Shown one piece after another: positions 3,339-20,349 of a stretch of DNA of 64,000 nt. The position numbers and the translations under genes are program-made. The first letter of the stretch is position 1. The number at the start of each line of letters is the position of its first letter. A model generated the notes under the pieces. The model saw only the letters and a program-made list of their open reading frames with translations. It had not been told where the DNA came from and searched no databases. Source of the DNA: a virus; IMG/VR virus record IMGVR_UViG_3300036806_000484, positions 4,821 through 68,820 of that record. The stretch is one strand, 5' to 3'.

Positions 3339-4556
3339 CTACTCGTCCAGGTCGCTCTTCACCTTCTCCAGGTCGAGAATCACTTCGGCTGCCTGCTCCG
3401 CCGTGGCGATCGCTTGGTAGGTGTCCAGCTTCAGGACGCGCTTCACGATGGCGTTGAGGTCGGACAGCGTGTCGAGCCCGAGCCGCTTCGCCTCGGCCTT
3501 CAGGTGCTTGTGCAGGTCCGACTGCTTCATCCCCTCGAGGCTTTCGAGGACGAGCGTCAGGCGGTCCTTCGGCTCTTCTGCGGCCGGCGGCGGAGTCGGG
3601 GTGGAAGCGACGTCTGGGGCCTTTTCACCGTTGCCGGGTTGGGCGGCAGGGGTACCATCTTTGTCCGTCGCTTCCGACCCCGACGGCGCGCCGGAAGCGG
3701 GCTTCCTCTTCTTCGCCTCAAGCTGCTCGCGCAGCTTGTCCTGCCGCTCCTTGGTGCGTGCTGCCGTGCGCTCGTTGTCATCCTCGCCGTCGAGGTTGCG
3801 GATCAATCCCTCGACTGTCGTATCGCCGTCCCGGATGGCGGTGATCACGCCGCGCAGCGTGATCAACTCGTCGGTGCCGATGTCGTCCAGCCCCTGCACG
3901 CCGAGCAGCTTGAACACCTGAGCCTCCACTACGCCGGCCTTGGCGAACCACGCCATCGCGTTCTGGCGCGTCTGGGCCAGCGTGCCGGCCTGCCCCACCG
4001 ATGCCGCACGCGCCGCCTGATAGATGCGCTGCGTCAGCGCCGCGGGGATGACCTTGAAGACCGAATTGCGGAGCGCGATCGACGTCGCCGCATTGCCGGT
4101 CACCACGATCATGTCGTCGTTGAGCCGCTTCCCGTTCCTGTCGGTGATCCGCCGGCGCACCCGCACCCGGACGGCCACGTTCTTCTCGAGGTCGAAGCAG
4201 GTGCCCTGGGCGGTAACGTGGGTTGCGTCGTCGCCCACCACGCCGGCGTCGACCCGCAGGTTGCCCCACGAGTAGGCCATGATCTCGGCCAGCCGCGCCG
4301 AGGGACCCTCGATCGTCTTGCCCGCGCGCGGCAGGGCGTAGAAGCAGCTTGCCGCCGTCTCCGCATCGAGGGTGGCGAGATCCATCGCCTCCTTCAACGA
4401 CTTGGTGATGCTGCGCGGGTACTTCTTCGCCGTCGAGACCTGCACGTCGACAGACGCGCGGTCGACGTCGTCCATCCGAACGAGCCCCGATCCGATCACG
4501 ACCTCTTCCTGAATCTCGTCTTCTGCGCCTTGGGCGCCCTTCCCTGGTCCCGTCAT
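3339..4556 (-). CDS. Putative ssDNA-annealing/recombination protein
   Basis: N-terminal AKKYPRS...FYALPRAGKTIEGPSARLAE...WGN block typical of phage genes paired with YqaJ exonucleases; low-complexity linker. Function inferred from position. Confidence 0.55.
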   Translation of the reverse strand: MTGPGKGAQGAEDEIQEEVVIGSGLVRMDDVDRASVDVQVSTAKKYPRSITKSLKEAMDLATLDAETAASCFYALPRAGKTIEGPSARLAEIMAYSWGNLRVDAGVVGDDATHVTAQGTCFDLEKNVAVRVRVRRRITDRNGKRLNDDMIVVTGNAATSIALRNSVFKVIPAALTQRIYQAARAASVGQAGTLAQTRQNAMAWFAKAGVVEAQVFKLLGVQGLDDIGTDELITLRGVITAIRDGDTTVEGLIRNLDGEDDNERTAARTKERQDKLREQLEAKKRKPASGAPSGSEATDKDGTPAAQPGNGEKAPDVASTPTPPPAAEEPKDRLTLVLESLEGMKQSDLHKHLKAEAKRLGLDTLSDLNAIVKRVLKLDTYQAIATAEQAAEVILDLEKVKSDLDE

Positions 4557-5620
4557 TCTTTCTCCTTGTCGTTGTCATCGCCGCGCAGGTATAGCCGCAG
4601 CTCGTCGTAGGGTGCGCCCCGCTTCTCGAACTGCGCGAGGTCGATGGTCACGTCTTCCTTCTCCAGAATCGCCTGGAGTATCTTCGGGCCAGCGAGCGTC
4701 GGGTCCATCGTCTTGGCCATGAGCCCGAACAGCTTCTGCCGATCGATGGGCCGGGCGGCGAGCAGCGCCTTCTTGTCGAAGGACGTTTTCTGTCGGGCGC
4801 TGAAGTGCAAGGTATCGTTGCCGATGCGCAGCGCGCCGCGGCTCGGGCCCAGGAGCTCGATCATCTGCCCGCGCGCCTGCTTCTGGAGGTCCTCGCCGGT
4901 CTTCGCCAGGTCGCGCGCCTCGGCATAGGCATCGATCGCGGCGCGAAGCTCCGGCGTCTCGGCAAGCTCGATCACCTCGGTCTGGGCCTTCACCAGCGCC
5001 GACGGCACCCGCCAGCCGGTGTCAGATGGCGGCTTCTCCGTCAGGATGTGATCGTTGTAGAAGGTCTGCGCGGCCTGGAACAGGCTCCGCTGGAGAATGT
5101 TGTCGGCCTCGTGGTCGAAGCGGATCAGCACCCAGTATTCGGCGCTGAACACCCCGAAGGCGCCGGTCGGGCTCTCCATCAGTCCCGGCTGCATGTACCA
5201 CTGAAGCTGGGTGCCGAACCTCTCCGGGAGCCCGTCGCGCTGCGCGGCGATGAAGACAGGGACCATCATCGTCTTCAACTCGAGGGGAGAAAGCTGGCCG
5301 GCCGCGCGCCTGATCTCGTCGAGGTAGAAGCCGCGATCGACGTTGCCCACCACGAACGGGTACTTCGGATGCCGCAGCATCTCCTTCACGCGGACCAGTT
5401 TCCGTCCGGTGTCCTTCTGATACTTCTTCGCCACGATCGGCTCGAGCATCCGGCCGCGCTCGAGCACCGGCAGGTCCTCGGGCAATTCCTTCGCCTGCCC
5501 CATCTTCTCGAGGAACAGGTCCAGCGGGCCCTTCTTGGGATCCGCCCCGACCAGGGCGGCGACGTCTGACCCTCCGATGCCCGAGCGGCGATCGGCGAGG
5601 AACTTCTTCCTGCTCGTCAT
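4553..5620 (-). CDS. YqaJ/lambda-exonuclease family protein
   Basis: Motifs RRSGIGGSDVAALVG, RGRMLEP, HPKYPFVVGNVDR, LELKT, QLQWYM. Confidence 0.9.
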   Translation of the reverse strand: MTSRKKFLADRRSGIGGSDVAALVGADPKKGPLDLFLEKMGQAKELPEDLPVLERGRMLEPIVAKKYQKDTGRKLVRVKEMLRHPKYPFVVGNVDRGFYLDEIRRAAGQLSPLELKTMMVPVFIAAQRDGLPERFGTQLQWYMQPGLMESPTGAFGVFSAEYWVLIRFDHEADNILQRSLFQAAQTFYNDHILTEKPPSDTGWRVPSALVKAQTEVIELAETPELRAAIDAYAEARDLAKTGEDLQKQARGQMIELLGPSRGALRIGNDTLHFSARQKTSFDKKALLAARPIDRQKLFGLMAKTMDPTLAGPKILQAILEKEDVTIDLAQFEKRGAPYDELRLYLRGDDNDKEKE

Positions 5621-5942: not shown

Positions 5943-6599
5943 TTACGGTATGTGCGACCGCCCGAGCAGGTAGACGCCGATACCGAGCAGCAGCTTGAAG
6001 GCAAGGCTCTGGGTCTGGTGCAGGTTGGTGGCGATCTGGACCCGGGCGCTGTCCACCTGGACGGTTGCCGAGGCGTCCGGCGTGGCGGCGCGCAGGGCCA
6101 TGCGACCGTCCGCGCTCCGATTCAGCGCCGCGATGATTTCCGTAGGGTCGCGCCGAATAGTCCACGCGACAGTGGCAGGCTTCGGCGGCCGCGGTACGTC
6201 GGCCTTGATGCTGGCGTGGAAACCGGCGGTATCGATCGATGCCGCGAGCTGCCGCACGGTGCTATCGGTGGTGGACGTCGTAACCGTACCGGCGCGCACG
6301 ACCTCGTGTAGCGAATCGAGCTGAACCTTGAGCGCCGTCAAGCTGACGGTCTTCTGGCCATCGTCCTTCAGCGCCTTGCCGAGCTCGCCGCGCAGCTGGA
6401 TGGCCTGCGTCTGCTGGAATGCCAAGCGCTCGTGGACATTGAGGGACTTCGAGCGGTAGACCAGCCGCGACGTGTCGACCGCCGCCATGTCGTTGAAGTG
6501 ATCGAGCTTCTCCTGTGCGAGACGATCGCGGAGCAGAGAGATGATCAGGAGCATCGCGGCGAACGCCGCAGCAATGGCGAGGACGATGGGGCGTTTCAC
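5943..6599 (-). CDS. Lysis-cassette membrane protein (spanin-like)
   Basis: N-terminal TM (IVLAIAAAFAAMLLIISLL), coiled-coil segment, hydrophobic C-terminus; last gene of the lysis cluster. Confidence 0.55.
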   Translation of the reverse strand: MKRPIVLAIAAAFAAMLLIISLLRDRLAQEKLDHFNDMAAVDTSRLVYRSKSLNVHERLAFQQTQAIQLRGELGKALKDDGQKTVSLTALKVQLDSLHEVVRAGTVTTSTTDSTVRQLAASIDTAGFHASIKADVPRPPKPATVAWTIRRDPTEIIAALNRSADGRMALRAATPDASATVQVDSARVQIATNLHQTQSLAFKLLLGIGVYLLGRSHIP

Positions 6600-6682
6600 G
6601 GGTGCCTCGGGGGCCTGGGACCGAAGGAAAGAAGGGCGGCGATACCAACCATGATCCAGCCGAATACCCAGACGGCGTCCAT
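6596..6682 (-). CDS. Very small single-TM peptide (28 aa)
   Basis: MDAVWVFGWIMVGIAALLSFGPRPPRHP; coupled by start/stop overlaps on both sides. Confidence 0.45.
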   Translation of the reverse strand: MDAVWVFGWIMVGIAALLSFGPRPPRHP

Positions 6683-6927
6683 CAGCGTGGGGGAAGGACG
6701 TCCTTGAAAGCTCGCTGCATCCAGCCGTTCAGAAAGCGGGCCTGGCTGGGGTCGTGGGCCACGATGTTGGCGTAGTGCCGGGCCCGGTCCTCGGAGAACA
6801 GGACGCGCACCTTGAGACGGTGGAACTCGGTGGTGTCGCAGGCGACTGCCGATGTAGTCTGCGGATTCCTGGGGGCCGGGACAGCCGCAATGACGAGGGC
6901 AGCCGCCCATGGAACCCAGCTACGCAT
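6682..6927 (-). CDS. Signal-peptide protein carrying the C-terminal motif of GH108 endolysins
   Basis: MRSWVPWAAALVIAAVPA followed by DRARHYANIVAHDPSQARFLNGWMQRAF. Confidence 0.6.
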   Translation of the reverse strand: MRSWVPWAAALVIAAVPAPRNPQTTSAVACDTTEFHRLKVRVLFSEDRARHYANIVAHDPSQARFLNGWMQRAFKDVLPPR

Positions 6928-7333
6928 CGCGCGCTCGCTCGAGCCGGGCCTTGGCGACGGACTCGCCCTCGTTGATCGAGGAGTCGTAGACCTCGTCTGC
7001 CAGCTCCTGGTCGGGTTCACTGTCGAGGCCCAGCGGCGTCCAGTACCGCTCCTTCCGGAAGTCTTTCACCAGCTGCTTGAACTCCGGATGCTGTGAGGCA
7101 AGCTCGGCGTCAACCTGCTTCCAGACCGCCGCGCCGGCGTCCTTCGTCGTGGTGAGGCCCAACCTGCGGCATACCTCGGATACGGCGTGATCAACGAGTG
7201 GCCAGCCGATGAAGTGAGGGTTGGCCTGGCGTGCGATCGCGCAGATTGTTTCCCCGCCGCGGTCCTTCGAGTCGTTGGCGTAGCCGCCCTCGGCCCCGGA
7301 CGTCTTTGCGTCGGAGATGTTGAAGTCAGCCAT
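6920..7333 (-). CDS. Endolysin, GH108 lysozyme catalytic domain
   Basis: EGGYANDSKDRGGET motif, RYW, VYDSSINEG. Confidence 0.85.
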   Translation of the reverse strand: MADFNISDAKTSGAEGGYANDSKDRGGETICAIARQANPHFIGWPLVDHAVSEVCRRLGLTTTKDAGAAVWKQVDAELASQHPEFKQLVKDFRKERYWTPLGLDSEPDQELADEVYDSSINEGESVAKARLERARDA

Positions 7334-7760
7334 CGCCGCGCCGCGCGAACGGGACCAGCTTCCCGGCCAGGTTGCCGATCGTCGAGAACGCTGCTTGGGT
7401 GACGGTCTGCGAGAGCGACATACAGCCGGCGACGAAGAGCCCGCCAGCTGCGATCAGGGCGATGACCTTGGCGGACAAGGGGCTCGCGACGGCCATGCTG
7501 TCGAGCCACCACTGGGCCTTCACGACCTTGGTGAGGCCGAAGAAGAAGGCGCCCGCCACCGCGACGTGGGCCACGGTGATGACGATGTTGAGCCCAGGGG
7601 ACCGCATCTGTACCGCCGTCTGGACGTTCTCATCGGCCTTCTTCACCGCGTCGGCGATCTTAGTGAGGGTCGTCGACCGACTGGGCCGTGGCTGCGGCAC
7701 CGGCGGCGGCGTAGCTGGCCGCTCGAGTCCGGTCAGGTCCTTGGCGTCGCTGTCCGTCAT
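7326..7760 (-). CDS. Putative holin
   Basis: Two hydrophobic segments; directly upstream of the endolysin. Confidence 0.5.
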   Translation of the reverse strand: MTDSDAKDLTGLERPATPPPVPQPRPSRSTTLTKIADAVKKADENVQTAVQMRSPGLNIVITVAHVAVAGAFFFGLTKVVKAQWWLDSMAVASPLSAKVIALIAAGGLFVAGCMSLSQTVTQAAFSTIGNLAGKLVPFARRGDG

Positions 7761-8170
7761 GCTGGGCTCCCCTCGCCGCGGTCGCCGCGGCCCGTGGTGG
7801 CGTAGTAGAGCCGGGCGATCCGCTCGCGCGCGATGCGCTCTTCCGTCGCCGTCGACTGCTGCACTGCCATGAACTCCGACACCTTCACCGTGAACTCGCT
7901 GATGACCGCGACGAGCCCGTCCAATCGCTCGAGCGCGGCGCCTCCCGGCTGCTCACTTGGCGGGTTGGCGGCTCCCTTGACCAGTTTGAAAGCCAGACCG
8001 ATCCCGCCACTGGCGGCTCCGATGCCGACGCCGATGCCTTCGATGAGCTGGGGTAGCGAACCCGACTGCCCGCTCTGGGACTGCTGGAGCGCGTGGAGCA
8101 CCGCCGGCGCGAAGATCACCACCAGCACCCCGGCTGTCGCGGACATGAGCACGTCGCGCAGTCTCATCAT
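7757..8170 (-). CDS. Membrane protein (holin/antiholin-like)
   Basis: Hydrophobic N-terminus and a Gly-rich TM segment; start taken at the ATGATG downstream of GGAAGG. Confidence 0.5.
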   Translation of the reverse strand: MMRLRDVLMSATAGVLVVIFAPAVLHALQQSQSGQSGSLPQLIEGIGVGIGAASGGIGLAFKLVKGAANPPSEQPGGAALERLDGLVAVISEFTVKVSEFMAVQQSTATEERIARERIARLYYATTGRGDRGEGSPA

Positions 8171-8292
8171 AGCGGCCTTCCACCGAGCATCGTTCCTCCT
8201 GGACGGTTTCAGGACGACTACGTGGTTAATCGGGGACGCCACAAAGTAGGGGGTTTCATGAAGGCGTCCACTAGGGTTGCTCCGAGTCGCGG

Positions 8293-11200
8293 TCATCGCC
8301 CCACCCTGAGATGTTGTGGATGAACGGGCCGCACCGGACGGGCGACTCCACCGCCGGCGTGGTTGGCTTCCTTCTGCTCGAGGATCGGCTGCCAGAGCGC
8401 CTTTTCCTGCGGTGTCCCCACGTTGTAGACGTTCTGGGCTTCCTCGAAGTTCAGCTGCCTGAAGCTGCTTACCCGCGGATCCTCTTCCGTGCCCCGCATC
8501 GTGCTCAGGTACTGGAGCCTCGTGATCTGGCCGCTGTTCACCATTGAGTCAAGCGCCATCTGGGCGGTCTGGTCGCCGGCCTTGATCCGGCGTCCAATCT
8601 CCCGCCTGGCGTCGCGTAAGGCACCCTGTTCCGGTGTCGGTGTGTCCTGGCCGCGCCGCGAGAGGTAGTCGTGCATCATATTCACTGCGTCGGACCCCTG
8701 ATGCTCGGCCGGCGCCGACGTGATGCCCAGCATGCTCTGGACGTCCCCGCCGTACTGGAGCCCGATCGGCTTGAACTGCTTGATGGAATGGGCGAATTCC
8801 TGCTCCGCCACCTTCCCCGCGTAATGCGGCAACGCCTCGTTCGGCTCGCGCGGGCTATGGATCATTCGGCCGCTGAAGTCGCGGTTGTCGAGCACGTCGA
8901 AGATGGCCGTCAGCAGCGGGTGGAGCTTGTTCTTCACCGTCTGCCAGGGGCGGCTCTGGAAGTCGATCACGTCGCGCATGTAGGACGCGAACCAGCGCCG
9001 GTGCGGTGTACCGTCCGGGTTGAGCGTGCCGTCCTGGGGGAAGTAGAGGTCCTTCAAGCTCTCAGGCGGCTTCCCTGACGCCAGCATCTGATAGATGGCC
9101 CCGGCCATGGCGATCGTCGCCGGCAGGGCAATCGTGTAGGCCAGCGGATGCGTCAGTCGCGGGCGCTTCAGCGGCTCGCGCGCCTCGCCCTCGTCCTGGA
9201 AACCATCCTCGTCCGGCGCCGACTTCGGGCCCTTCGGGCGCTCGGAGGTGCGGCCATTGAGTAGGTGCCTTACGTCGGCCATGCCTCCGCCCAATTCTTT
9301 TCCGGACCCCACGTTCCAGCCCAGCGAGCGCACCGTGACCATGCCGAGGTCGCGCATCAGCGGGTGCCAGAACAGGTAGTTTACCGACATCTGCCCGAGC
9401 CGGTTCTCGACCGAGTTCCAGACCTCGCGCGCGATCATCCTAGCGTCGTCGTCCGTCGCTCCGTCTGGCATTCTCGAGAGTTCGTAGCGCATCAGGTCGG
9501 CAAAGACGCCCAGTTTCTGGAGCGGCACCAGGCGCTCCATGATCGGGCGAGCCACCCACTCAATGAGCCCCGGCGCGGACCACGCAGCCGCGCTCAGCGG
9601 GTGCTTCTGACGCAGCGCCTCCCAGAACTTGGCCGCAGCGCCGGTCTTATAGAAGCCGTGCTGATCGACGCGGCCGCCGGCCACCACGAGGGCGTGCACC
9701 AGCGCCTGCATCTCGGGATCCACGTTGCCGCCCGAGAGGTAAGCGTTCCTGAGCTTCACGCCGCGCAAGAGGTTGGCGACCGGAGCGATCGGCGCCGCCG
9801 CCCAGGACGCCAGCGCCTTACCGGGATCTCCGCCCATCATCTGCTCGATGCCAAGCGCCACCTTCGAGACCACCACGTCCATCGTTGTGAACATCGCGTG
9901 GAAGGCGGACAGGCCTAGCTGCACTTGGTTGAGCACGTTCCCTATGCCGCGGTACGCCGAGTAGAGCGCGTTCTGCTGGAGCCCGGGCGCGAGGGATCGG
10001 TTGATGGTGTCAGCGGCCTCGGGCTCGGCGTAGTAGTGACCGCGCACGACGAGGCCTCCGACGGCCTGGTCATACTGCGCTGTCTCGATCACCAGCGACG
10101 GCTTGATGTCGAGCAGCGGCCGCAGGTCAGGGTCCGTCTGGAAAATCTTCGTCAGCGCCGCCTTCACGGTGGGCGCGATCTTCTGCATCAACTCCGGCGC
10201 GTACATGAGTGCGTGCACCGCATTGGCGATCTGCTCCGCGCGCCCGCGCACATACTCCTTGTAACCCTGGGTCGCCGTGGCTTCGCTCCCCTGGAACCGT
10301 GCGTCGGCCAGGTCGCGCAACTCTGAGCGCATCGTTACCCTGCGCTGCCGCTCCGCATCGCGCGCCGCCTTGATCTTGGCGTTGTCGCGGTTGATGGCGC
10401 CGTGCTTGGATTGCCGACCACTCGCCTTGTCGATGACCGCATCCACCAACTTGTCGTGCGCCGTGGCCGGAGGAATCAGCTTCTCCATGAGGTGGTAGCG
10501 GACGTCGAGGATGTGCCCCAGTTCGTGCATCTTGACGCCGTGCACGCTGCCACTGCGCGTCGCCATCAGGTTCCCGCCCTCGGCGAATCCCGGCGCGCGA
10601 CCGCCGATGTTTGGGCCGTGCTCATGCGTGACGCCGTGGCGCGCGATCCAGTCATCCAGCGCCTCGTTGACCATCCCATCGACCGCCTCGGAGACCTTCA
10701 CGTAGGGCGACCCGAACACCGTGAAGATGTTGTCTTCGATCTTTTTCATGTCCTTGGGGGGCGGCATGAGCGCTGATCGGAAGACGAAGCGGCCAGCCCG
10801 CTTCCCTTGCGCCACCAGCTTGTGGGCGAGGATGTAGCGGTCCATCTCGTGGAGTTTGAGCAGGAGTAGATCGGCCGGGTTGGTGCTCACTGGCCAGCGG
10901 GATCCGGACTGCCGCGCCTCCTTCAGCATCTTTGCAGCTGTCTTCCCGTCGCCGGCCATGGCGGCCGACCGGAAGGCGTTGATCCGGTCCGCGTCCCCGT
11001 CGAAGATGCCATCCAGCGTGGTCGGGATCGACCGGTGCTTCGTGAACGACTTCCCTCCCTCGATCGGCCGCCGGCCTACGACCTTGCCGATCTGGGCCTC
11101 GCGCGCTCCGCGCTCCCAGATATGCTCCATGTAGTTCTCGACCAGCACCTCGAGCTTGCCCGTGCCGAGCGACCGAACCTGCGCGATGCGCGCCTGGCGC

Positions 11201-14200
11201 ATCCTGTCGAACAGTTCGGCGGCTGCGGGACGATCGCCGCCGTAGGTGTCCGGGCTCTCAGCTTGGTCGATGAACATGAGCCGCTGCCAGTCGGCCAGCT
11301 TCTCGAGCTGCGCACGGACCTGCTTCACCCGCTTCTTCGCGAGTTCGTCCCGACGCGCCAGCCGGCCCTGCATCTCGCGGTACATATCCGCCACCTGCCC
11401 AGCCTCGGGCGTCACGGTCGGCAGGGCGAAAGCCTCCTGCACCGCCGAGCCGATCTTCGCCAGCTTGTCCAGCGCAGTCCGGACCTCACCGGTGTGCATC
11501 GGGGGCGTGGCGCCCTCCGGGGCTGGCGAGACGTCGACAAGCGCCGGTACGTCCAGCGGCTTGCGCTTCGCGCGTGGCCGCACCGGAGGCGGCGCGGTGC
11601 CGCGGCTGACCGCCCTGGCTTCGTTCACCTCGCCGCCCTTGGCTGGGCCCTGCGCCGGCGGGAATCGATCGAGGAGTTTCTTGAGGTGCGTATCGTCGAG
11701 CGGGACGTACAAGAAGGTCCCCACCGGCTCATAGCGCGCGTAGCCCTTCAGCACTCCTTGGTGCTTCGAGAGCGTGGCGCCCTTGATCTGGACCTTGTCG
11801 TCTCGCCGCGGGTGCAGTATCCACTTCTCTCCGTTGGCGCCCATGATCGGGACGTTCTCGCCCAGGCGCAACGCGGCGATAGCGTCCTCGGCCGTGGCGA
11901 TCGTCGCGCCGGCGCCGAAGGCGCTCGCCACCCGGGAGCCCTCGGCTGGATTCAGTACCATGCCAGAGATGACCGCTCCGGTCTTGTCGTCGGTGAACTG
12001 GCCGTAGCGGCGGCTGCGCGCCTCGCCGTACTCGTGGCCGCGGACGCTCTGAATCGTGATCATGTGGTCGGTCACGTAGCCATTGAGCATCGCGCCCTTG
12101 CCGCCGGCTGCGTCGACGGTCTCGTACATCGTCAGCGGCGGCTTCTCTGAGAGCTTGATCGACCGAACGATCTCCCCGTGGGCCCTGGCTGTACGCCTGG
12201 CGGCGGAGGCCTCGGCTCGCTCCCCGGTGGTCAACGCCTCGCGGTTCGCCACCCAGAGCCGCATGACCTCTTCGGCTTCCTTCGTCGGCAGCATCATCAC
12301 TTCGAGCAGGAACTTGCGGATGTCGATGCCGTCAGGACTGTGCTTCGGCACGTACATATCCGGCGCGCCATGGCCACCCTTCCGGAACTCCACGAAGGTC
12401 GAGCCGGTGAAGTGCTCCTTGATCGAGCCGGGCAGCTGCTGGTAGGCGAGGCGCGCGGCCTCGAGGGAGATGTCACCGCCCATCTCGAAGCGCTCGAGCG
12501 CGTCGGCGGCCGAACTGGACTCTGCGGACCCCGTGCTGCTGGCCCCCAGGGTTGACATGCGCGCCGCGATCGTCGCGGCGAACTTGCGCTCGCCCGCGGC
12601 GTTGGACGCCACCAGCTCGATGATGGGCTTCGACTTCTGCCCGGCGCGATCGACCCGGCCCAGTTCCTGCCAGAAGGTGTCGGCGCTCCATTCGTAGTCG
12701 GCCACCAGCATGTGACGCTGCTTGCCGTTCACGTCATGGAGGCTGATGCCGACCTTGCCGGCCGGGCTGATGAGCGCCACCGGACGCGCGCCAGACTGGA
12801 ACTCGGCCATCAGGGCGCCGCGCTTCTTCTGCGCCACGCGGCCGGTGATCGCCGCGACTTTGGAGGCGCCGAACCGGTCCTCGATCGTCCGGACCGGATC
12901 CCGCAGCGGCACTAGTTCGCGCGCGCGCTCCAGCAGCTTGGCCTTCTTGACCACCGCCTCCGGGATCTCTCCCAGGTCGATGTATTCCGCGTCCTCGCCG
13001 GATCCTTCCTTCTCCACCTCGCGGGTGTTGATCCGGTTGATCGCGGCCTCGAGCCGCTTGTTGACCGGGACCTCGCTGTCAGCGGCAGACATGCCCTCTT
13101 CGAGGTCGGCGTCGCCTGCGACCGAGTGGACGCTGATCACCGGCTGGCGCCCGGCCTTCAGCGCGTCCTCGGCGGCATCGAGCACGTCGTCCAGGCGCAG
13201 GTCGAACAGCACCTGCTTGAGGTAGGACTGGATCATCGCCCGGTCGAGGCCCATCGTCTTCGTCTGCTTGTTCATCTGGCCGAACTTTCGGCCGGCGCGC
13301 ACGATGTCGCGGGAAAGTTCTGCGGCCGTGTCGTACCGCTTCCGGTCCTTCACGCTCTTGGTGCTGTCGCCGAGCAGGTCGATCTCCTTGACCCGGAACA
13401 CGACGCCGCCACGCCACAGGTCCCGCGAGATGAACTTGCCCTTGCCCTTCAGCTCCCGGACGATCTGCTCGGTCTCCGCCGGCGTCACGCGCGTCGTAAA
13501 TACGTCCGGCCTGGTGCGCATGAACTTCTTCTTCTTGCCCGGCTCGATGTCCTGCCCCTCGGCGCCACCCGCCTTCACGGTGGGCCGCTCACCGACCTCG
13601 GCGTCCTCTCCCTGCTGTGCGGCCGCGGCGGCATCGGCCGCCTCCTGCTCTCCCTCGGGCTTCTCAGGTGGCGCGTGACCCGTCTTCCGGTCCACCCAGT
13701 CGCTGAAGCCGCCGATCGGCCATTCCTTCAGGCCGTAGAGGTAGGCGTATTCGTCGAGGGTAACGCCAGGCGTCGCCGTCAGGTAGGCAAACTTGCCGCC
13801 CTGCTCGAGCATCTGGTTGTGCAGTCCGCGCCACGCCATGCCGCGTCCGGCGAACTGGTTCTTGTAGAGGTGGGCCTCGTCCGCGATCCAGACCTTGGGG
13901 TTGATCTCGGCGAGGGCCGCGGCGTAGGCCTCGAGGTTCGTGGCCTGGACGAAGTAGATGGCCGCGCCCTTCGGTTGCGGCAGTGACTCCGTCCCCTTCT
14001 TCACGCCCTTGTAGTCGCTGACGCGCACGAAGGTCGCCGGGAACTCCCCATCTTCCTTCCCCGAAGATACCAGCCGGAACTCGCGCATGGCGTCGTCAAT
14101 GTTCACTTCGTTCTTGGTGGAGTAGATGATCGGCCCGTAGTCGCGGGCGATCGCCTCGAGGGCCAGCGCCGCTGCCTCGCGCGTCTTCCCGAGGCCCACG

Positions 14201-17200
14201 TTGTCGGCGACGAGGATGCCGTGGTCGTTCTCCCAGGCGGTCAGGCCGTGGAGAACGGCGTCGGCCTGTTCGTCTGAGATGCCGCCTTGGTTACCGGGAC
14301 GGCCCCATGCAGCTTCGACGAGTGGGGATTTGAACCCGGCGTCGATCGGCGGGGACGGCATCCCGCCGAGCGAGCGGGTCTCGACTACGAGTCGCGGGTG
14401 GGGACGCCGACGCTCGGCAGTTCCGAGTGGGTAAGCACTAAACACCGGGCTATCGTTTGCCGCCTCGAGCTCAGATCGGCGTTCCTCAGAGTCTCCTGTT
14501 CGGGGCTCAACTCTCCCCCGAGCCACTCCAGGAACCACTGCTTTCTTTCCTCCGGGCTGAGCGGCTTGGGATCCTTCTGGGGCCACCACGTCGGCACCCC
14601 GTCCGGTCCCAGTTGCAGCGCCGCCTCCGGATCCTGATGCGGGTCGCTCGGATCCACCGCTGGCCCCGCCTCGCTGGGCTGGAGCGGATGCTTCACGATT
14701 TCCAGCAGCCACTCCTCCAGCAGCTGGGGGCTCAACGGCTTGGGCGGTACCACCAGTCTCCTCCTCCACCAAGGCGGCGCGCGGCTTCTCTTTCGGCGGC
14801 GCGGTCTCGGTGCGCTTGACGGGGGCCACGTTCTCGGCTGGCTCATGTCCACCGGTCCGGCGCAGGTCGCCGGAGCCGCCGAGTCGCGCCACCGCGTCCA
14901 TCCACTGCTCCCACGACGGCTTGGTGACCATGGCGATGTCGCCGCCCGTCGCATCGGTCGGTGGCTCCTTGTCGACCACCACCATGACCGTCCCGAAGTC
15001 AGTGCCCCGCGTGCTGTAGGCGCCCTCCGGGCTCTCCAGATACATCCTAACGTGATAGTTCTCGCGCAGCCACTTCCGGAACGGCGTTGAGCTGGGGTTC
15101 AGCGTCCCCTGCCCCATGATCGCCACCAGTCGGCCGCCGGGGATCAGGCTCTCCATGGCAGCATAGACGAACCTCTGCGCCACGTCGTTCGAGGCGAACG
15201 GCGTCGCACCGAAGCCGCTGTACTTACCGGTGTTGGCCGCGCCGAAGGGCGGGTTCATCACCACCGAGTTCACGCGCAGGCCGGTCAGGGGCAGTTCGAG
15301 TGCGCTTCCGGTCATCGGGTGGAAGCCAAGCTCCTCGAGCAGGTGCGCGCGCCGCGGGTCCAGCTCGTTGACGATGACGTTCTGCGCGGCCGGCAGCATC
15401 GAGATGAGGTTGCCGGTGCCGGCGGTCGGCTCCAGCAGTTTCTCTTGGGTGATGGCATCCGTCGCCCACTGCGCGGCCGCAGCCATCGGCAGCGGCGTCG
15501 AGAACTGCTGGTTCGCCAGCTTGTCGGAGCCGCGCGGCGAGAGCGGGACCATCTTCTCTTCGACCTCGCGCATCGCCTTCAGGTAGTCGATGATGCGCGT
15601 GCCATCCCACTTCATCAGGTCGATGCGACCGAAGGTGTTCTGGACCCAGCGGTTCAGCGCCACCTCGACCGCGTCGTACAGGTCGTCGGTGCGCCACGTC
15701 CCGCTCGCGTAGTCGCGACCGAGCACCTGGCCGGCCCACTTCCGGAGGTCCTGCGCCTTCTTGGGCAGCGAGCGGTCGATCAGGCTGTTGAGCGCCGCGT
15801 CGGACAGCTTTGTGAGATCCGCGCTGCTCGCCCGCGTGGCGCCCTCTTCGATGACCGACTGGACGCCGCGCTTCGACGTGGCCCCGGGTGCCGGTGCCTC
15901 ATTGAATTCTTCGGTCTCGGCCACCGACGGCGTGCTCAGCTTCTCGAGATCGGCGATGAGGACCTGAATGGCGCGCTTCGTCTGGCCCTCGCCGATGTCG
16001 ACGTAGGCGCGATGAAGACTGCGATCCGCCTGCTCAATGTCGCCCCGCTCTAGATCGGCGGCGACCTCCTCGAGGTAGCGTGCGATGCGCCGCGGCTGAC
16101 CGCTGGCAATGTCGAGCGCCTCGGCCGACAGGTTGCTGAGCCGCTGGCTGACCTTTTTCTCCGCGGGAGACGGCTCTACTACTCCCTCCTGCGCGGCCAT
16201 CTTCGCCAGTTCCTCGGCGCTCATGTCGTTCAGCATCCGCTCGTCGTCGGATCCCGGCTCGGGCGCCAGCCTGCGGATGATCTCCTGGCGCGCGGCCTGC
16301 TGCTGCGGCGTCAACTGGTGCGGCAAGGTCTCCGTGGCAGGCTTCGGCAGCGGCTTCGGCGGCGCAACCATCCCCGGCTCGACCGCTGGCGGCAGGTCGC
16401 GCACGTTGCCGACCTCGCTCGCCGGCTCCGAGGGGATCGCCTCGGGCCGGTATACCACCTCGCCGTTAGGCCCGCGCGTCGGCACAACACGGCCCTTGTC
16501 CGCGGGCTTCGGCGCCGGCGCGGACCATCCGCCCATAGCCGTCATGGGGTGATCAGTGATCTGCTTTATCCTGGCCTTCAGGATTTTTACGATTTTCTTG
16601 GCCTGCTGAGTCTCCTCGTCTGTGGCGAGCCCTGCATCAAGCATCTCTTCATGGCGCGCTAGTTCCGCTTGGGCACGGGCCATGTCGAGCGAGGCGAACC
16701 CCTGCTCGTTCGCGCTCAGCGGCGGGGGCACCTTTACGGCTGGCGAGGCGGCAGTCTCCCCGTTGAAGAATGACTCGATCGCCTTCTGCGTCGGCTTGAT
16801 ACCGAACTTCTTCGCGGTCGCGCGGATCGCCGGGCCGTTGGTCACCGTGTAGTTGCCGGACTCGAAGGCCTTCCGCATCGCGGTCAGCACGCCCGGCACC
16901 TTGTCGAGCCCGTAGGCGTACTCGGTCGGCCTGGTGCGCACGGCGTTTTTCAGTTCCTCGCCGTAGACGGTCATCCAGCGGTCGACATTCTCGGCCCGAC
17001 CCGTGAGGCCTTCCGGAACCGACTCGCCTGAGCGGTTGATCGTGTGCGGGGACTCCGGCGCCTGCCATCCCTTGGTCGGCGCTGCCGGTGCATAGGTCGG
17101 CGCTGCCACCGACGTCTCGCCTGGCTGCCCCACGCCGAGCACGCGCCGCAACTCGTTCAGCAGCTTCGTGCCCTTGAGCATGATCTTCGATCCGTCCGTC

Positions 17201-20200
17201 TGCTCCAGCGACAACCGCGGGTTCTTGCCGCCCCAGTGCTCGAAGCCGGCCATCTTCTCCGAACCGCCGGTGCCGCCCATGACGCCGAAAGCCTCGCTGG
17301 CGTGCTGGCGAAGCTCCTCGTCGCTCAGACCGTACTCCCGCGCCACGTCCCACTTCGGGGATCCGCCGCTGGTTGCGCGCCACACGGCGCGATCGTTCCG
17401 GTCGGTGATGGCTTGCTCGCGCGCGATCTCGTCGTTGGAGTGGCCGTGCTCACTCTCTCTCAGTTCGTGGTCGATGACGCTGGCACGGGCCCGCAGGATC
17501 TCCAGCACTCCGCCGCGCTCACCGGTCTGCTCTCCTGGCGTGGCGCGCGAGCTCTCGAGGTGCAGACGTTCAAGTTCGCGGCGCGCGTTGACCGTATCGC
17601 CGGTGTGCGCCAGCCGCGCGGCCGTGTCGATCCGGGAAGACGCCGCGCGCAGCGCGGGGTCGGCGATCGCGTCGGTCTGCGGGCCTTCTAGCGCGGCGCG
17701 CATGTCCTTCATCTGGTCGCGCACCTGTCCCGAGTAGGCGTTGCCCCATGACTTGTCGTATTCGGCCAACATCTGCTGGGCGTCGTCGGCCGACTCATGG
17801 AAGCCGCCGCGTGCGCTGACCCGGCCCACCTCATCAGGCGCGGCCATCGCCTCGATCGTTAGCCCGCGCAATTCGCCCATGCGGTTCTCTACCAGGCTGT
17901 GAAGCGGCATCATCGCCTGGGCGGGCGTCTGGTGTTCTGGCTGCCGCAGGGCCGCTTCTTCGCGCGGCATGTGCTCGATCGCCTCGGGGAAGAATTCCGG
18001 CTGCTGCTTCGCCTCTTCCTCCCGCTGCTGGATCGCGTGCTCCAGGGCGTCGTCCGGCTCATGCGCTGCGGCCATTTCGTCGTAGAGCGCGCGCGCGTCC
18101 CTCACCCGGCCGCCGCGCATCGCGTCGAGGATCCGGTCCTGGTAGTCCCGCATGTCGCCACGCTCGAACGGATAGGCGTCGTCGCCCAACGTCGGCCTGT
18201 TCACCGACTCGTCGCGCTCGAGCGCCGTGGTGCCGGCCCTCTGCGCCTCGCCGCGCTGTTCCTCTGAGATTCCAGCGACCTCGGTCTTGGCCTGCTCCAG
18301 CGGCTTCCCGCCGCCCAGCAGGTCCTCGAGCTTGAAGGGGGCCGCTGCTGCGCCGCTGCTCGGCACTGCGCCCGGAGCGACCGGCGGTGGGGCTGTGGCT
18401 GGCGTGGGAGCCGCTTCAGGCTCCGTCGTGGCGGGGCTCTGGATGAACGCCGGGATCTCAGCCGGTGGCTCCGTCGGCGGGGCCGGAATATCGATCGGCT
18501 GGGTCGGCTTCCCTATGATGGACTGCCAGTCGCCGCCGGCCAGGCGCGCCTCGCTGGCCCGCTCCGCCACAGAAGGCGAGACGTCGGGCCAGATGTGCGA
18601 GGAGCCGTCCGACAGCCAGACCGTGGCGCCGTTGCCGTTGCGCTCCACCCGATCGATGGTCGGGCGCTCGGCGGCGGCTTCCTGTGGGGCCGCAGGAGGG
18701 GCTTCGGCTGCCGGAGCCACAGGTGGCGGGGTTTCGGCCGCGGGCGGCTCCTGCACGCTGGGAGCCCTTGGGGGAGCCGCTTCCGGAGCCGTCACGCCCG
18801 GCATGTTCGTAGCTTCCGTCTGATACGCTGCCAACGGGTCGCCTGCCTGCTGTATCCCTCTCTGGATAGCCGACCGCGCCTTCGCCACGGCTGCGCGCTC
18901 TGCCGGCGTCTTGGCAGCGCGAAGCTGGTCGTCTGTGGCGCGCAGCTGCTCCATCAGCGGGGCGAGGCGAGCCTGGACGGCCTGCTGATCGGACAGCGCC
19001 GCATCACGAGCCTTTGTCATCAGCCGGTAGGCATCTGGATCCGGTTGCGCGCCTGTGTCCGGGTGATACTGCATCACGGCTCGGCGATAGGCGCTCTTCA
19101 CGTCCTCGACGCTGGCGTTGGCGTCCAGCCCGAGCGTGTAGAACGGGTCGCCGGATCCCGCGCGCACGATCGGCGAGGCGGGCGACGTCAGCGACTTGCC
19201 GGCCGTCATGATCTGGGCCTGCTGCACCGCGCCCGCCCACGCCTGCCGGGCCCGCTCCATGGTGGCTCGAGCTGCGGCCCCGATGAAGGGCTCCGCTGCT
19301 CCGAAGCCGACACCGGCCGCAGTCGCCTGGCTGACGTTCTCGCCCAGCTGCTCGGCCGTCGGGCGATCGGGGCCAGCGAGCTCCTTGCCCGCCTCGTAGG
19401 TGCCGAAGCGCGCACCCTCGGTCACGCCGGACTCCAGCGCTCGCTCTCCGATCGGCTGGGCGGCGTGGGCGACGGACGCAGCGACGTCGGCTGCCGCTGG
19501 CGCTCCGGACTCCAGGACAGCCTCTGTCAGCGGCGCTGCTTCTCCGCCCACGGCCATCGGCAGCATTCCAGCGGCTACGCGGGCGAGGTCGCCGGCGCCT
19601 TGGGCAATGCGCTCGGGAAGTGGAGCGCCTTCGTCGGTCCTCCCGACCTCGTCAATGGCGCGGCGCTTCATCTCCGACATCGCCAACTGATCTTCGAGCG
19701 CCTGAGACCCTGTGGCCGCGGCGCCCGCCTTCAGTAGTGCTTCTCGCACCGGCTCCCCAAAATCCGACCACGCCTGTCCCACACCTCTCGCGATGGAGTT
19801 CTCGCCAAGATTGCGCTCGTACCCTTCCCTCGTCGCCGGCTCGGCCGCCGCCGCAGCTTCCTCCGCTTTCCCGCGGCGGATCGTGTCACCCATCGCCCCT
19901 TCAACGAGGTCGGCCTGGTCAGGCCGTTCGCCGAACGGCCGCGCCTGGACGGGCGGCATCGTAGCGGCCGGAACCGTCTTCGGCGGCGTGAGATCCATCC
20001 CCGGAGTCACCGGCGCGCGCCCGAACCTCTCGTTCTGCGCCTCGGCACCGAGCGTCGGACCCTCGGCTGCCGGCGGCTGGAAGCGCACCGGGGCGACATC
20101 GAGCGGCTGTATCTCGCGGGTGTCGGCCTGCTGGGTGGCTTCGGCGGCGGCGGGGCGCGGTTCGAGCGCGGGCGCGGCGTGCGCGCTGGCCTCGAGAGAG

Positions 20201-20349
20201 TCGAGAAGCTGCTGGCCGCCGGCTGCGGTGGGCACGGGCTGGCGGCGCTGGATGTCGGTAACGGGTTTGAGGAGGTCCTCAATGCGAAAAGCAGGGCCTT
20301 TGCCCTGCTCTCCGGAAAGAAGGTCCTCGAGCCGGAACGGTGTGCTCAG
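8293..20349 (-). CDS. Giant polyvalent (DarB-like) virion-ejected protein: J-domain, N6-adenine MTase, Strawberry-notch-type SF2 helicase, zincin-like HExxH region; probable CTG start at 20349
   Basis: DPFYTLGL...KSAYRR..MQYHPD; QQFSTP, LEPTAGTG, VMNPPF; ADNVGLGKT, ADEAH, LTATP, AGKVGISLHD, QELGRVDRAGQ; MHELGH. Follows the ejection-protein genes. The frame stays open upstream of the tracked start (20235) to a CTG preceded by GGAGGG. Confidence 0.85.
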   Translation of the reverse strand: MSTPFRLEDLLSGEQGKGPAFRIEDLLKPVTDIQRRQPVPTAAGGQQLLDSLEASAHAAPALEPRPAAAEATQQADTREIQPLDVAPVRFQPPAAEGPTLGAEAQNERFGRAPVTPGMDLTPPKTVPAATMPPVQARPFGERPDQADLVEGAMGDTIRRGKAEEAAAAAEPATREGYERNLGENSIARGVGQAWSDFGEPVREALLKAGAAATGSQALEDQLAMSEMKRRAIDEVGRTDEGAPLPERIAQGAGDLARVAAGMLPMAVGGEAAPLTEAVLESGAPAAADVAASVAHAAQPIGERALESGVTEGARFGTYEAGKELAGPDRPTAEQLGENVSQATAAGVGFGAAEPFIGAAARATMERARQAWAGAVQQAQIMTAGKSLTSPASPIVRAGSGDPFYTLGLDANASVEDVKSAYRRAVMQYHPDTGAQPDPDAYRLMTKARDAALSDQQAVQARLAPLMEQLRATDDQLRAAKTPAERAAVAKARSAIQRGIQQAGDPLAAYQTEATNMPGVTAPEAAPPRAPSVQEPPAAETPPPVAPAAEAPPAAPQEAAAERPTIDRVERNGNGATVWLSDGSSHIWPDVSPSVAERASEARLAGGDWQSIIGKPTQPIDIPAPPTEPPAEIPAFIQSPATTEPEAAPTPATAPPPVAPGAVPSSGAAAAPFKLEDLLGGGKPLEQAKTEVAGISEEQRGEAQRAGTTALERDESVNRPTLGDDAYPFERGDMRDYQDRILDAMRGGRVRDARALYDEMAAAHEPDDALEHAIQQREEEAKQQPEFFPEAIEHMPREEAALRQPEHQTPAQAMMPLHSLVENRMGELRGLTIEAMAAPDEVGRVSARGGFHESADDAQQMLAEYDKSWGNAYSGQVRDQMKDMRAALEGPQTDAIADPALRAASSRIDTAARLAHTGDTVNARRELERLHLESSRATPGEQTGERGGVLEILRARASVIDHELRESEHGHSNDEIAREQAITDRNDRAVWRATSGGSPKWDVAREYGLSDEELRQHASEAFGVMGGTGGSEKMAGFEHWGGKNPRLSLEQTDGSKIMLKGTKLLNELRRVLGVGQPGETSVAAPTYAPAAPTKGWQAPESPHTINRSGESVPEGLTGRAENVDRWMTVYGEELKNAVRTRPTEYAYGLDKVPGVLTAMRKAFESGNYTVTNGPAIRATAKKFGIKPTQKAIESFFNGETAASPAVKVPPPLSANEQGFASLDMARAQAELARHEEMLDAGLATDEETQQAKKIVKILKARIKQITDHPMTAMGGWSAPAPKPADKGRVVPTRGPNGEVVYRPEAIPSEPASEVGNVRDLPPAVEPGMVAPPKPLPKPATETLPHQLTPQQQAARQEIIRRLAPEPGSDDERMLNDMSAEELAKMAAQEGVVEPSPAEKKVSQRLSNLSAEALDIASGQPRRIARYLEEVAADLERGDIEQADRSLHRAYVDIGEGQTKRAIQVLIADLEKLSTPSVAETEEFNEAPAPGATSKRGVQSVIEEGATRASSADLTKLSDAALNSLIDRSLPKKAQDLRKWAGQVLGRDYASGTWRTDDLYDAVEVALNRWVQNTFGRIDLMKWDGTRIIDYLKAMREVEEKMVPLSPRGSDKLANQQFSTPLPMAAAAQWATDAITQEKLLEPTAGTGNLISMLPAAQNVIVNELDPRRAHLLEELGFHPMTGSALELPLTGLRVNSVVMNPPFGAANTGKYSGFGATPFASNDVAQRFVYAAMESLIPGGRLVAIMGQGTLNPSSTPFRKWLRENYHVRMYLESPEGAYSTRGTDFGTVMVVVDKEPPTDATGGDIAMVTKPSWEQWMDAVARLGGSGDLRRTGGHEPAENVAPVKRTETAPPKEKPRAALVEEETGGTAQAVEPPAAGGVAAGNREASAPAQRGGASGGSERPASGSGGGAATGTGRGADVVAPEGSQAAQPGGKKAVVPGVARGRVEPRTGDSEERRSELEAANDSPVFSAYPLGTAERRRPHPRLVVETRSLGGMPSPPIDAGFKSPLVEAAWGRPGNQGGISDEQADAVLHGLTAWENDHGILVADNVGLGKTREAAALALEAIARDYGPIIYSTKNEVNIDDAMREFRLVSSGKEDGEFPATFVRVSDYKGVKKGTESLPQPKGAAIYFVQATNLEAYAAALAEINPKVWIADEAHLYKNQFAGRGMAWRGLHNQMLEQGGKFAYLTATPGVTLDEYAYLYGLKEWPIGGFSDWVDRKTGHAPPEKPEGEQEAADAAAAAQQGEDAEVGERPTVKAGGAEGQDIEPGKKKKFMRTRPDVFTTRVTPAETEQIVRELKGKGKFISRDLWRGGVVFRVKEIDLLGDSTKSVKDRKRYDTAAELSRDIVRAGRKFGQMNKQTKTMGLDRAMIQSYLKQVLFDLRLDDVLDAAEDALKAGRQPVISVHSVAGDADLEEGMSAADSEVPVNKRLEAAINRINTREVEKEGSGEDAEYIDLGEIPEAVVKKAKLLERARELVPLRDPVRTIEDRFGASKVAAITGRVAQKKRGALMAEFQSGARPVALISPAGKVGISLHDVNGKQRHMLVADYEWSADTFWQELGRVDRAGQKSKPIIELVASNAAGERKFAATIAARMSTLGASSTGSAESSSAADALERFEMGGDISLEAARLAYQQLPGSIKEHFTGSTFVEFRKGGHGAPDMYVPKHSPDGIDIRKFLLEVMMLPTKEAEEVMRLWVANREALTTGERAEASAARRTARAHGEIVRSIKLSEKPPLTMYETVDAAGGKGAMLNGYVTDHMITIQSVRGHEYGEARSRRYGQFTDDKTGAVISGMVLNPAEGSRVASAFGAGATIATAEDAIAALRLGENVPIMGANGEKWILHPRRDDKVQIKGATLSKHQGVLKGYARYEPVGTFLYVPLDDTHLKKLLDRFPPAQGPAKGGEVNEARAVSRGTAPPPVRPRAKRKPLDVPALVDVSPAPEGATPPMHTGEVRTALDKLAKIGSAVQEAFALPTVTPEAGQVADMYREMQGRLARRDELAKKRVKQVRAQLEKLADWQRLMFIDQAESPDTYGGDRPAAAELFDRMRQARIAQVRSLGTGKLEVLVENYMEHIWERGAREAQIGKVVGRRPIEGGKSFTKHRSIPTTLDGIFDGDADRINAFRSAAMAGDGKTAAKMLKEARQSGSRWPVSTNPADLLLLKLHEMDRYILAHKLVAQGKRAGRFVFRSALMPPPKDMKKIEDNIFTVFGSPYVKVSEAVDGMVNEALDDWIARHGVTHEHGPNIGGRAPGFAEGGNLMATRSGSVHGVKMHELGHILDVRYHLMEKLIPPATAHDKLVDAVIDKASGRQSKHGAINRDNAKIKAARDAERQRRVTMRSELRDLADARFQGSEATATQGYKEYVRGRAEQIANAVHALMYAPELMQKIAPTVKAALTKIFQTDPDLRPLLDIKPSLVIETAQYDQAVGGLVVRGHYYAEPEAADTINRSLAPGLQQNALYSAYRGIGNVLNQVQLGLSAFHAMFTTMDVVVSKVALGIEQMMGGDPGKALASWAAAPIAPVANLLRGVKLRNAYLSGGNVDPEMQALVHALVVAGGRVDQHGFYKTGAAAKFWEALRQKHPLSAAAWSAPGLIEWVARPIMERLVPLQKLGVFADLMRYELSRMPDGATDDDARMIAREVWNSVENRLGQMSVNYLFWHPLMRDLGMVTVRSLGWNVGSGKELGGGMADVRHLLNGRTSERPKGPKSAPDEDGFQDEGEAREPLKRPRLTHPLAYTIALPATIAMAGAIYQMLASGKPPESLKDLYFPQDGTLNPDGTPHRRWFASYMRDVIDFQSRPWQTVKNKLHPLLTAIFDVLDNRDFSGRMIHSPREPNEALPHYAGKVAEQEFAHSIKQFKPIGLQYGGDVQSMLGITSAPAEHQGSDAVNMMHDYLSRRGQDTPTPEQGALRDARREIGRRIKAGDQTAQMALDSMVNSGQITRLQYLSTMRGTEEDPRVSSFRQLNFEEAQNVYNVGTPQEKALWQPILEQKEANHAGGGVARPVRPVHPQHLRVGR

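Follow-up and report, generated by a model that had tools for sequence, protein, structure and literature searches.

A split GH108 endolysin in a phage lysis cassette, probably completed in the periplasm by a separately exported small chain

The genes described here lie in a window of 64,000 nucleotides taken from the record of a virus, probably a soil phage (IMG/VR record IMGVR_UViG_3300036806_000484, positions 4,821 to 68,820; 66% G+C), the minus strand of which carries most of the genes. Two overlapping open reading frames (ORFs) of this strand present an endolysin divided between two polypeptides. ORF1 (6920..7333) encodes a catalytic chain of 137 amino acids (aa) with the Pfam domain Glyco_hydro_108 and the EGGY motif (Glu15) of GH108 muramidases. 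ORF2 (protein P0001), running from its ATG at 6927 to the stop at 6682, encodes a small chain of 81 aa that consists of a signal-peptide-like N-terminus and a two-helix hairpin matching Pfam PG_binding_3. The start codon of ORF2 is located inside the last codons and the stop of ORF1, and direct reading of the sequence gives an overlap of 8 nucleotides, ATGCGTAG (6920..6927, minus strand). Endolysins of phages infecting diderm bacteria are usually seen as single soluble chains released by holins, or as signal-arrest-release (SAR) enzymes. Phage N4 gp61-type endolysins are muramidases in which GH108 and PG_binding_3 are fused in one polypeptide.

ORF1 matches the GH108 profile of Pfam (PF05838) with 44.3 bits (gathering cutoff 21.2, E 2.6e-11), its residues 11-123 corresponding to profile positions 4-85 of 85. 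The protein ends 14 residues past the end of the profile, at a place from which fused relatives continue. Glu15, in the sequence A-E-G-G-Y, is invariant across four split-type homologues and is aligned with the EGGY of structure 2IKB. By profile and catalytic motif the product is a predicted GH108 muramidase chain. It contains no signal, SAR or membrane segment (best 17-residue hydropathy 0.55) and would therefore be a cytoplasmic chain dependent on a holin. The sole close homologue obtained in a word-based search of an index of 5.8 billion proteins, P0003, is 78% identical, has also 137 aa and is known as a protein alone; when ORF1 and P0003 were scanned against viral contigs and genome contigs, zero loci were confirmed. 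When aligned, four GH108-only proteins with 37-78% identity end within two residues of one another (alignment A2).

ORF2 matches PG_binding_3 (PF09374) with 28.2 bits (gathering cutoff 24.6) over profile positions 25-75 of 76 only, so that the domain is incomplete: positions 1-24, including the DG..G..T loop, are unmatched. In PHROGs both chains fall on one endolysin profile, ORF1 at positions 340-426 and ORF2 at 439-484. Residues 31-81 (6685..6837, minus strand) form the conserved hairpin defined by the alignment of the small-chain family, and the model of ORF2 has helices at 32-58 and 60-73 (predicted local distance difference test, pLDDT, 87-92). Residues 1-30 (6838..6927, minus strand) are the export-signal region recognized by translation and hydropathy: a single arginine is followed by a hydrophobic stretch of 16 residues and then by a polar segment with A-V-A-C30 at its end. 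The 17-residue hydropathy maximum of 1.43 is a better fit to the h-region of a signal than to a membrane helix. Cys30 is located 10 residues past the hydrophobic region and beyond Arg20, and the lipobox pattern does not match. We interpret this signal-peptide-like N-terminus as an export signal, which might be processed by signal peptidase I after AVA, be processed at an atypical lipobox, or stay uncleaved.

These observations bear out what the original prediction had read from this locus: a GH108 domain stopping at 137 aa, its C-terminal motif placed in an overlapping second ORF, a signal-peptide-like start of that ORF (with its basic residue and hydrophobic stretch, though the canonical lipobox is absent) and the lack of the usual linker loop. 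The DG..G..T loop was sought in all three minus-strand frames from 7040 to 6660 and is encoded in none of them.

A word-based search with ORF2 found no homologue and tblastn of the small chain against phage records gave no match. A HMMER search of 1.84 billion representatives (E <= 1e-3) listed 12 proteins, namely the query, nine short proteins (90-117 aa), a 238-aa protein and a fused GH108 protein of 180 aa, and a profile search with the small chain listed 27 proteins among 1875 candidates, 25 of them short (81-131 aa) and two fused. In searches of PHROGs, NCBIfam and Pfam the small chain matched nothing beyond 'endolysin' or PG_binding_3, and PHROGs has no separate family for it; members of the family, where their source names them, are called 'hypothetical protein'. 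Searches of solved structures with the sequence and the profile of the small chain gave no match. In 25 of the 29 short members a lipobox cysteine, by a relaxed lipobox rule, stands straight after the hydrophobic stretch. Two of the four exceptions are near-misses, and only ORF2 and protein P0007 are truly without that cysteine, keeping just the later one that corresponds to the second cysteine of relatives. Judged by its sequence relatives, the small chain is thus a member of a family of short phage lipoproteins that has no name, and its anchoring in this phage is uncertain. The mature length in the family ranges from 52 to about 205 residues. Invariant in the hairpin are Y52, I55, Q62, G68, W69, R72 and A73, and nearly invariant are P60 and F65; these positions are mostly the hydrophobic core and groove residues common to fused enzymes.

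Two further observations concern this family. A D-S-L/I motif precedes the hairpin across its members, often just after the second cysteine. In the Atlas, the clusters structurally closest to the small chain consist of stand-alone PG_binding_3 proteins of 65-74 aa, mostly viral, which may represent further split forms without the long linker.

Among the closest known relatives of the pair are fused muramidases with GH108 and PG_binding_3, such as Neisseria NMB1012 (2IKB), Salmonella TtsA (6V40) and Sen1395 (6V3Z), which have the same catalytic and C-terminal motifs. Fused relatives of 185-193 aa, like the solved chains, can be aligned with ORF1 plus ORF2 from one end to the other. In an alignment with three fused proteins of this length that share a characteristic insertion of ORF1 (L081-L083; alignment A5), ORF1 occupies columns 1-137 and mature ORF2 approximately columns 169-208. 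The parts of the TtsA study that deal with its structure and mutants (PMC6996933) describe a small N-terminal catalytic part with a flap and a six-helix bundle (residues 68-180), whose groove together with the flap rings peptidoglycan and binds the peptide stem. This groove is lined by I116, D118, Q120, Q164 and N166, with D118 and T125 holding diaminopimelate; TtsA function was abolished by D118A, I116D and N166D, and probes placed at D118, N166 and F169 were cross-linked to peptidoglycan (PMC6996933). We transferred the TtsA numbering by aligning a fused family member to chain 6v40_A and calibrating on the EGGY glutamate. By this alignment, P60, Q62 and F65 of ORF2 are equivalent to TtsA Q164, N166 and F169, and the loop missing here is the one carrying D118 and T125. 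The break is thus predicted to fall within the helix bundle that binds the substrate and not at a boundary of independent domains, and the small chain to carry half of the groove, including residues that line it. The pair differs from the fused muramidases in being two polypeptides, in the position of the break inside the bundle, in the export signal on the second chain and in about 30 missing residues that include the DG..T loop.

The arrangement of the ORF1/ORF2 overlap suggests translational coupling. The same junction is found in an independent viral contig, L004 (G+C 0.67), in which a GH108-only gene about 42% identical to ORF1 is followed by a small gene whose start falls at the homologous position, GTGCGTAG, with a strong Shine-Dalgarno sequence ahead of it. 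In another contig, L029 (G+C 0.38), the two genes overlap by ATGA. G+C at third codon positions (GC3), counted in the own frame of each gene, is 0.85 in ORF1 and 0.79 in ORF2, and in sliding windows the frame of high GC3 passes from that of ORF1 (0.85) to that of ORF2 (0.80-0.87) at about position 6900. Because high GC3 moves to the frame of ORF2, this ORF codes in its own frame. It could be argued that the split is an assembly or sequencing indel, a decaying gene or a recent frameshift, possibly rescued by ribosomal frameshifting. The frame of ORF2 is indeed open upstream to 7020, so that a frameshift would yield a fusion, and the junction gained no confirmation from sequencing reads. However, a fusion could not bring back the missing loop, as it is encoded in no frame; both frames are backed by GC3, and the functional-looking lipoboxes of relatives require a free N-terminus. 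The junction is moreover conserved in L004, P0003 keeps the length of 137 aa, and isolated phage genomes show the same architecture. Because junction and length are conserved in relatives, an assembly indel is very unlikely; explanations by artefact or pseudogene are largely refuted, and the chance that we assign to this whole group of explanations is very small. Programmed-frameshift fusion as the main product was rejected as well, because relatives have signals that work only at a free N-terminus. We regard it as close to certain, from the sequences of the pair and its relatives, that the split is natural and that the small chain is exported.

Split pairs were found in 12 distinct records, in very different phages. 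Scanning of viral contigs with the conserved C-terminal motif yielded 46 loci, of which two (L004 and L029) were split pairs; the others held fused enzymes, 42 of them complete and 2 cut off where the contig ends. The same two contigs were recovered with the GH108-only alignment, together with 10 fused loci, one of them truncated (12 loci in total), and a scan with the low-GC subfamily of small proteins added 5 split pairs (L062 and L070-L073) among 16 loci, the other 11 being fused. None of 8 loci in metagenome contigs was split (6 fused, 2 cut by contig ends). In L062 the small gene and its GH108 partner gene overlap. Isolated Chryseobacterium phage MA9V-2 encodes a GH108 protein of 140 aa, followed after 8 nucleotides by a 222-aa lipoprotein with the C-terminal motif. 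In the crAss-like phages cr3_1 and cr110_1 and in prototype crAssphage (gp82/gp80), a GH108-only 'lysozyme' of 139-144 aa is accompanied by a lipoprotein of 110-116 aa with the motif, encoded 0.2-1 kb upstream. The split is thus kept in L004, L029, L062, MA9V-2 and crAss-like phages. Because the catalytic chain of MA9V-2 retains the loop region (PG_binding_1-like match at residues 103-131), the breakpoint differs between lineages.

Some side features of these loci deserve mention. The small-chain homologue of MA9V-2 (L079, 2431-3099, 222 aa) has a long helical-looking middle part and contains an A-D-S-L-like motif three times before its conserved C-terminus. In cr3_1, an HNH/NUMOD4 homing-endonuclease-like gene (L001, 498-1196) is located between the lipoprotein gene and the GH108-only gene, and may be a mobile insertion that parted the pair.

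Co-occurrence of the two halves was recorded in 80 sources, scored with two home-made narrow profiles in a sample biased by locus retrieval. Both halves were present in one ORF, as a fused enzyme, in 55 sources, and a short protein together with a separate GH108-only gene in 14 sources (12 distinct records); in the remaining 11 sources a single ORF was found in which one half was missed by the narrow profile, 9 of these ORFs being as long as fused enzymes and 2 being cut where the contig ends. A separate short protein stood beside a fused enzyme in none of the 55 sources, and a short protein without truncated GH108 in none of the 14. In this census the small gene and the fused enzyme are mutually exclusive, and the complementarity is clean.

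Complex prediction with ORF1 and ORF2 gave a median ipSAE interface score of 0.55 (0.60, 0.55, 0.54) versus 0.00 for all three controls, with contacts agreeing in at least 62% and partner pLDDT of at least 61; the verdict of the tool is 'weak support'. Invariance of the core and groove residues fits a hairpin that still packs against the same helices better than one that has adopted an unrelated role. The absence of a signal from the catalytic chain and its presence on the small chain are most straightforwardly read as different export routes. Co-occurrence, conserved core and groove residues, the break inside one bundle and the complex prediction together indicate that the two chains probably assemble physically. 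On balance we favour the view that the locus encodes a naturally split two-chain GH108 endolysin, specified by overlapping and probably translationally coupled genes in a phage lysis cassette and completed in the periplasm. The two-chain lysin of the original prediction stands in so far as the split is natural, conserved and recurrent (12 records) and the export routes differ; its assembly is argued for indirectly, with the proposed two-chain modelling returning the weak support given above. More tentatively, the enzyme may be an obligate two-chain muramidase: a hairpin exported in advance, and in most cases lipid-anchored, would complete its bundle in trans, making it competent only in the periplasm and keeping it fixed to a membrane beside the wall. 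The activity of the catalytic chain may depend on the small chain; the role of a lysis-timing safeguard, also suggested originally, is speculation.

The proposed sequence of events would be as follows. The first chain (137 aa), with the catalytic flap and the initial helices of the bundle that binds substrate, would accumulate in the cytoplasm and reach the wall once the holin opens the inner membrane. The second chain (81 aa) would be exported beforehand by its Sec-type signal; in most relatives it would be a lipoprotein, and in this phage, with the canonical lipobox cysteine lost, either soluble in the periplasm or unusually anchored. It would contribute the two final helices of the bundle, and with them residues of the peptidoglycan groove. 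After holin triggering, the first chain would dock onto the second in the periplasm and the substrate-binding platform would be rebuilt; in relatives, this docking would fix the enzyme to a membrane next to the wall.

Several results weigh against such a two-chain enzyme. In the window, L004 and L029 alike, the two chains together lack about 30 residues that make up the DG..G..T loop and the helix after it (alignment A5), and the groove rebuilt in pairs of this type would be incomplete, being devoid of the diaminopimelate-binding loop. GH108-only chains might be active by themselves. Halves of a split protein may pass complex prediction through memory of solved fused structures. The ORF1 model has a mean pLDDT of 69.9, with residues 1-28 below 50 and four helices in its second half, a count that is soft; its fold search returned no solved structure at E <= 0.001, TtsA and Sen1395 appearing only as weak rows (E 4.6 and 6.0). 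With the hairpin model of ORF2, Foldseek found no match and VIA-align generic helical hairpins only (Z <= 5.4). As the canonical lipobox cysteine is absent in ORF2, the tethering of relatives may not hold here. The two genes are non-adjacent in crAss-like phages, and a GH108-domain tree, with 12 rows left after the narrow profile and a 90-residue filter, does not separate one origin of the split from several.

Some of these points would fit two independent genes, of which the 137-aa GH108 protein is a self-sufficient endolysin and the small protein a separate envelope factor descended from an endolysin C-terminus, acting as a peptidoglycan-binding tether or as a spanin-like or outer-membrane-destabilising accessory. 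We consider this unlikely, yet it deserves serious attention. In the small-chain family, lipoproteins with a proline-rich linker predominate and a second cysteine is frequent, traits that are also typical of o-spanins; o-spanins (lambda Rz1 type) and u-spanins (T1 gp11 type) are likewise small lipoproteins of lysis cassettes, and many relatives of the small chain share their proline-rich linker and extra cysteine. The wide variation of mature length, with the long helical middle of the MA9V-2 protein, the separation of the genes in crAss-like phages and the lack of the diaminopimelate-binding loop, by which the full groove is not rebuilt anyway, are also consistent with independence. On the other hand, the small chain, unlike spanins, shares homology with an endolysin domain at its C-terminus, and its gene follows the endolysin gene, not being located in or after an i-spanin gene. 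The gene arrangement of o-spanins is not found at this locus: ORF2 overlaps the endolysin gene and precedes the gene of a 218-aa protein (5943..6599), in which no lipobox ORF is embedded, so that the small gene neither follows the downstream membrane protein gene nor lies within it. ORF2 is without a canonical lipobox, and L029 has its own u-spanin-like gene right after the pair, which means that the small protein is not the sole spanin candidate there. Furthermore, the small gene never stands beside a fused enzyme nor without a truncated GH108 in the 80-source census, its invariant residues are core and groove residues of the fused enzyme, and a hairpin of just two helices, its hydrophobic face exposed, would need a partner. 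Genes whose products have a lipobox at the N-terminus and a hydrophobic segment at the C-terminus, as expected for u-spanins, were seen after the endolysin in L029 (4312-4794), L066 (4150-4629) and L077 (4063-4581), that is, after fused enzymes (L066, L077) as well as after a split pair (L029).

Alternatively, the small chain could be a regulator that docks to the lysin in order to restrain, localise or retain it, for example on cell debris, with enzymatic activity independent of it. The same co-occurrence and homology as for the two-chain enzyme speak for such a role, and membrane anchoring predicted in 25 of 29 relatives fits localisation; computationally, regulation is inseparable from completion of the enzyme. 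No known inhibitor or retention family was matched in Pfam, PHROGs and NCBIfam, and we hold a purely regulatory role to be improbable.

Endolysins with a catalytic chain and a separately encoded or translated wall-binding chain include PlyC of streptococcal phage C1, Lys170 and CTP1L. The pair described here likewise combines a catalytic chain with a separate one, as two separate genes and with a complex that is only predicted. PlyC, a two-gene lysin of a Gram-positive phage, may be its nearest functional analogue. Lysins of this type act on Gram-positive hosts with both subunits cytoplasmic and formed by complete domains, and to our knowledge none of them has a lipoprotein subunit or is split within a single domain. 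Prototype crAssphage has the same two types of protein as the window, the GH108-only gp80 (142 aa) and the lipoprotein gp82 (116 aa, PG_binding_3 at 28-75); unlike in the window, one small gene lies between them and the lipoprotein gene comes first. In the crAssphage record, gp82 is a 'putative membrane protein, contains peptidoglycan-binding domain' and gp80 a 'putative lysozyme', and the two are not linked as halves of an enzyme. On lysis, passages of a Crassvirales review mention only spanins and lysins. Full-text searches of an open-access library found no description of such a split. GH108, PG_binding_3 and phage lipoproteins are known already. The element for which these searches gave no precedent is that the GH108-only lysozyme and the small protein represent opposite ends of a single enzyme, broken inside a domain, and that one end is exported.

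If the two-chain reading is true, it adds a third layout of endolysins, in which a cytoplasmic chain and an exported lipoprotein each provide part of the substrate-binding domain. It would be a widespread, undescribed lysin design in diderm phages, common to soil phages, Bacteroidota phages and crAssphage (gp80/gp82), and would give a function to a family of 'hypothetical' lipoproteins. The poorly understood lysis step of crAss-like phages could then be tested with gp80 and gp82, and GH108-only proteins mined from metagenomes as enzybiotic candidates may be incomplete without their partner.

The order of genes on the minus strand is a 179-aa membrane protein (7757..8296), a 144-aa membrane protein (7326..7760), ORF1, ORF2 and the 218-aa protein. 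The gene of the 144-aa protein is located immediately upstream of ORF1 and overlaps its start. This protein has hydrophobic segments at residues 59-79 and 99-115 and is a holin candidate; the 179-aa protein, with one strong hydrophobic segment (49-65), may be a second holin or an antiholin, and the two are accordingly listed as holin/antiholin candidates from sequence features. The 218-aa protein, perhaps a spanin-like envelope protein, has a strong hydrophobic N-terminal segment of membrane or signal type (hydropathy 2.84 at residues 5-21), a hydrophobic C-terminal tail and no cysteine. Its feature matches in the Atlas (0.93-0.94) are viral hypothetical proteins only, with DUF6549 in a minority of one cluster, and it may be an envelope-spanning component of the lysis cassette. 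Searches of Pfam, PHROG and NCBIfam gave zero family matches for the 144-aa, 179-aa and 218-aa proteins, and no similarity was seen between the 218-aa protein and the 219-aa protein encoded downstream of the pair in L004.

Immediately upstream of the lysis genes lies an ORF of 3980 aa (8293-20235, minus strand) with DnaJ (364-410), AAA_34 P-loop (1945-2058) and Strawberry-notch-type helicase C-terminal domains (2457-2667). In L004, too, the lysis genes come after a homologue of the C-terminal end of this protein. On the other side, the lysis cassette is adjoined by a nuclease of the lambda-exonuclease family (4553-5620, minus strand; TIGR03033 with 67.1 bits, just below the cutoff of 68.05). 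In crAss-like phages a PD-(D/E)XK nuclease gene is located immediately before the lipoprotein gene, a parallel with the window nuclease that may be a coincidence.

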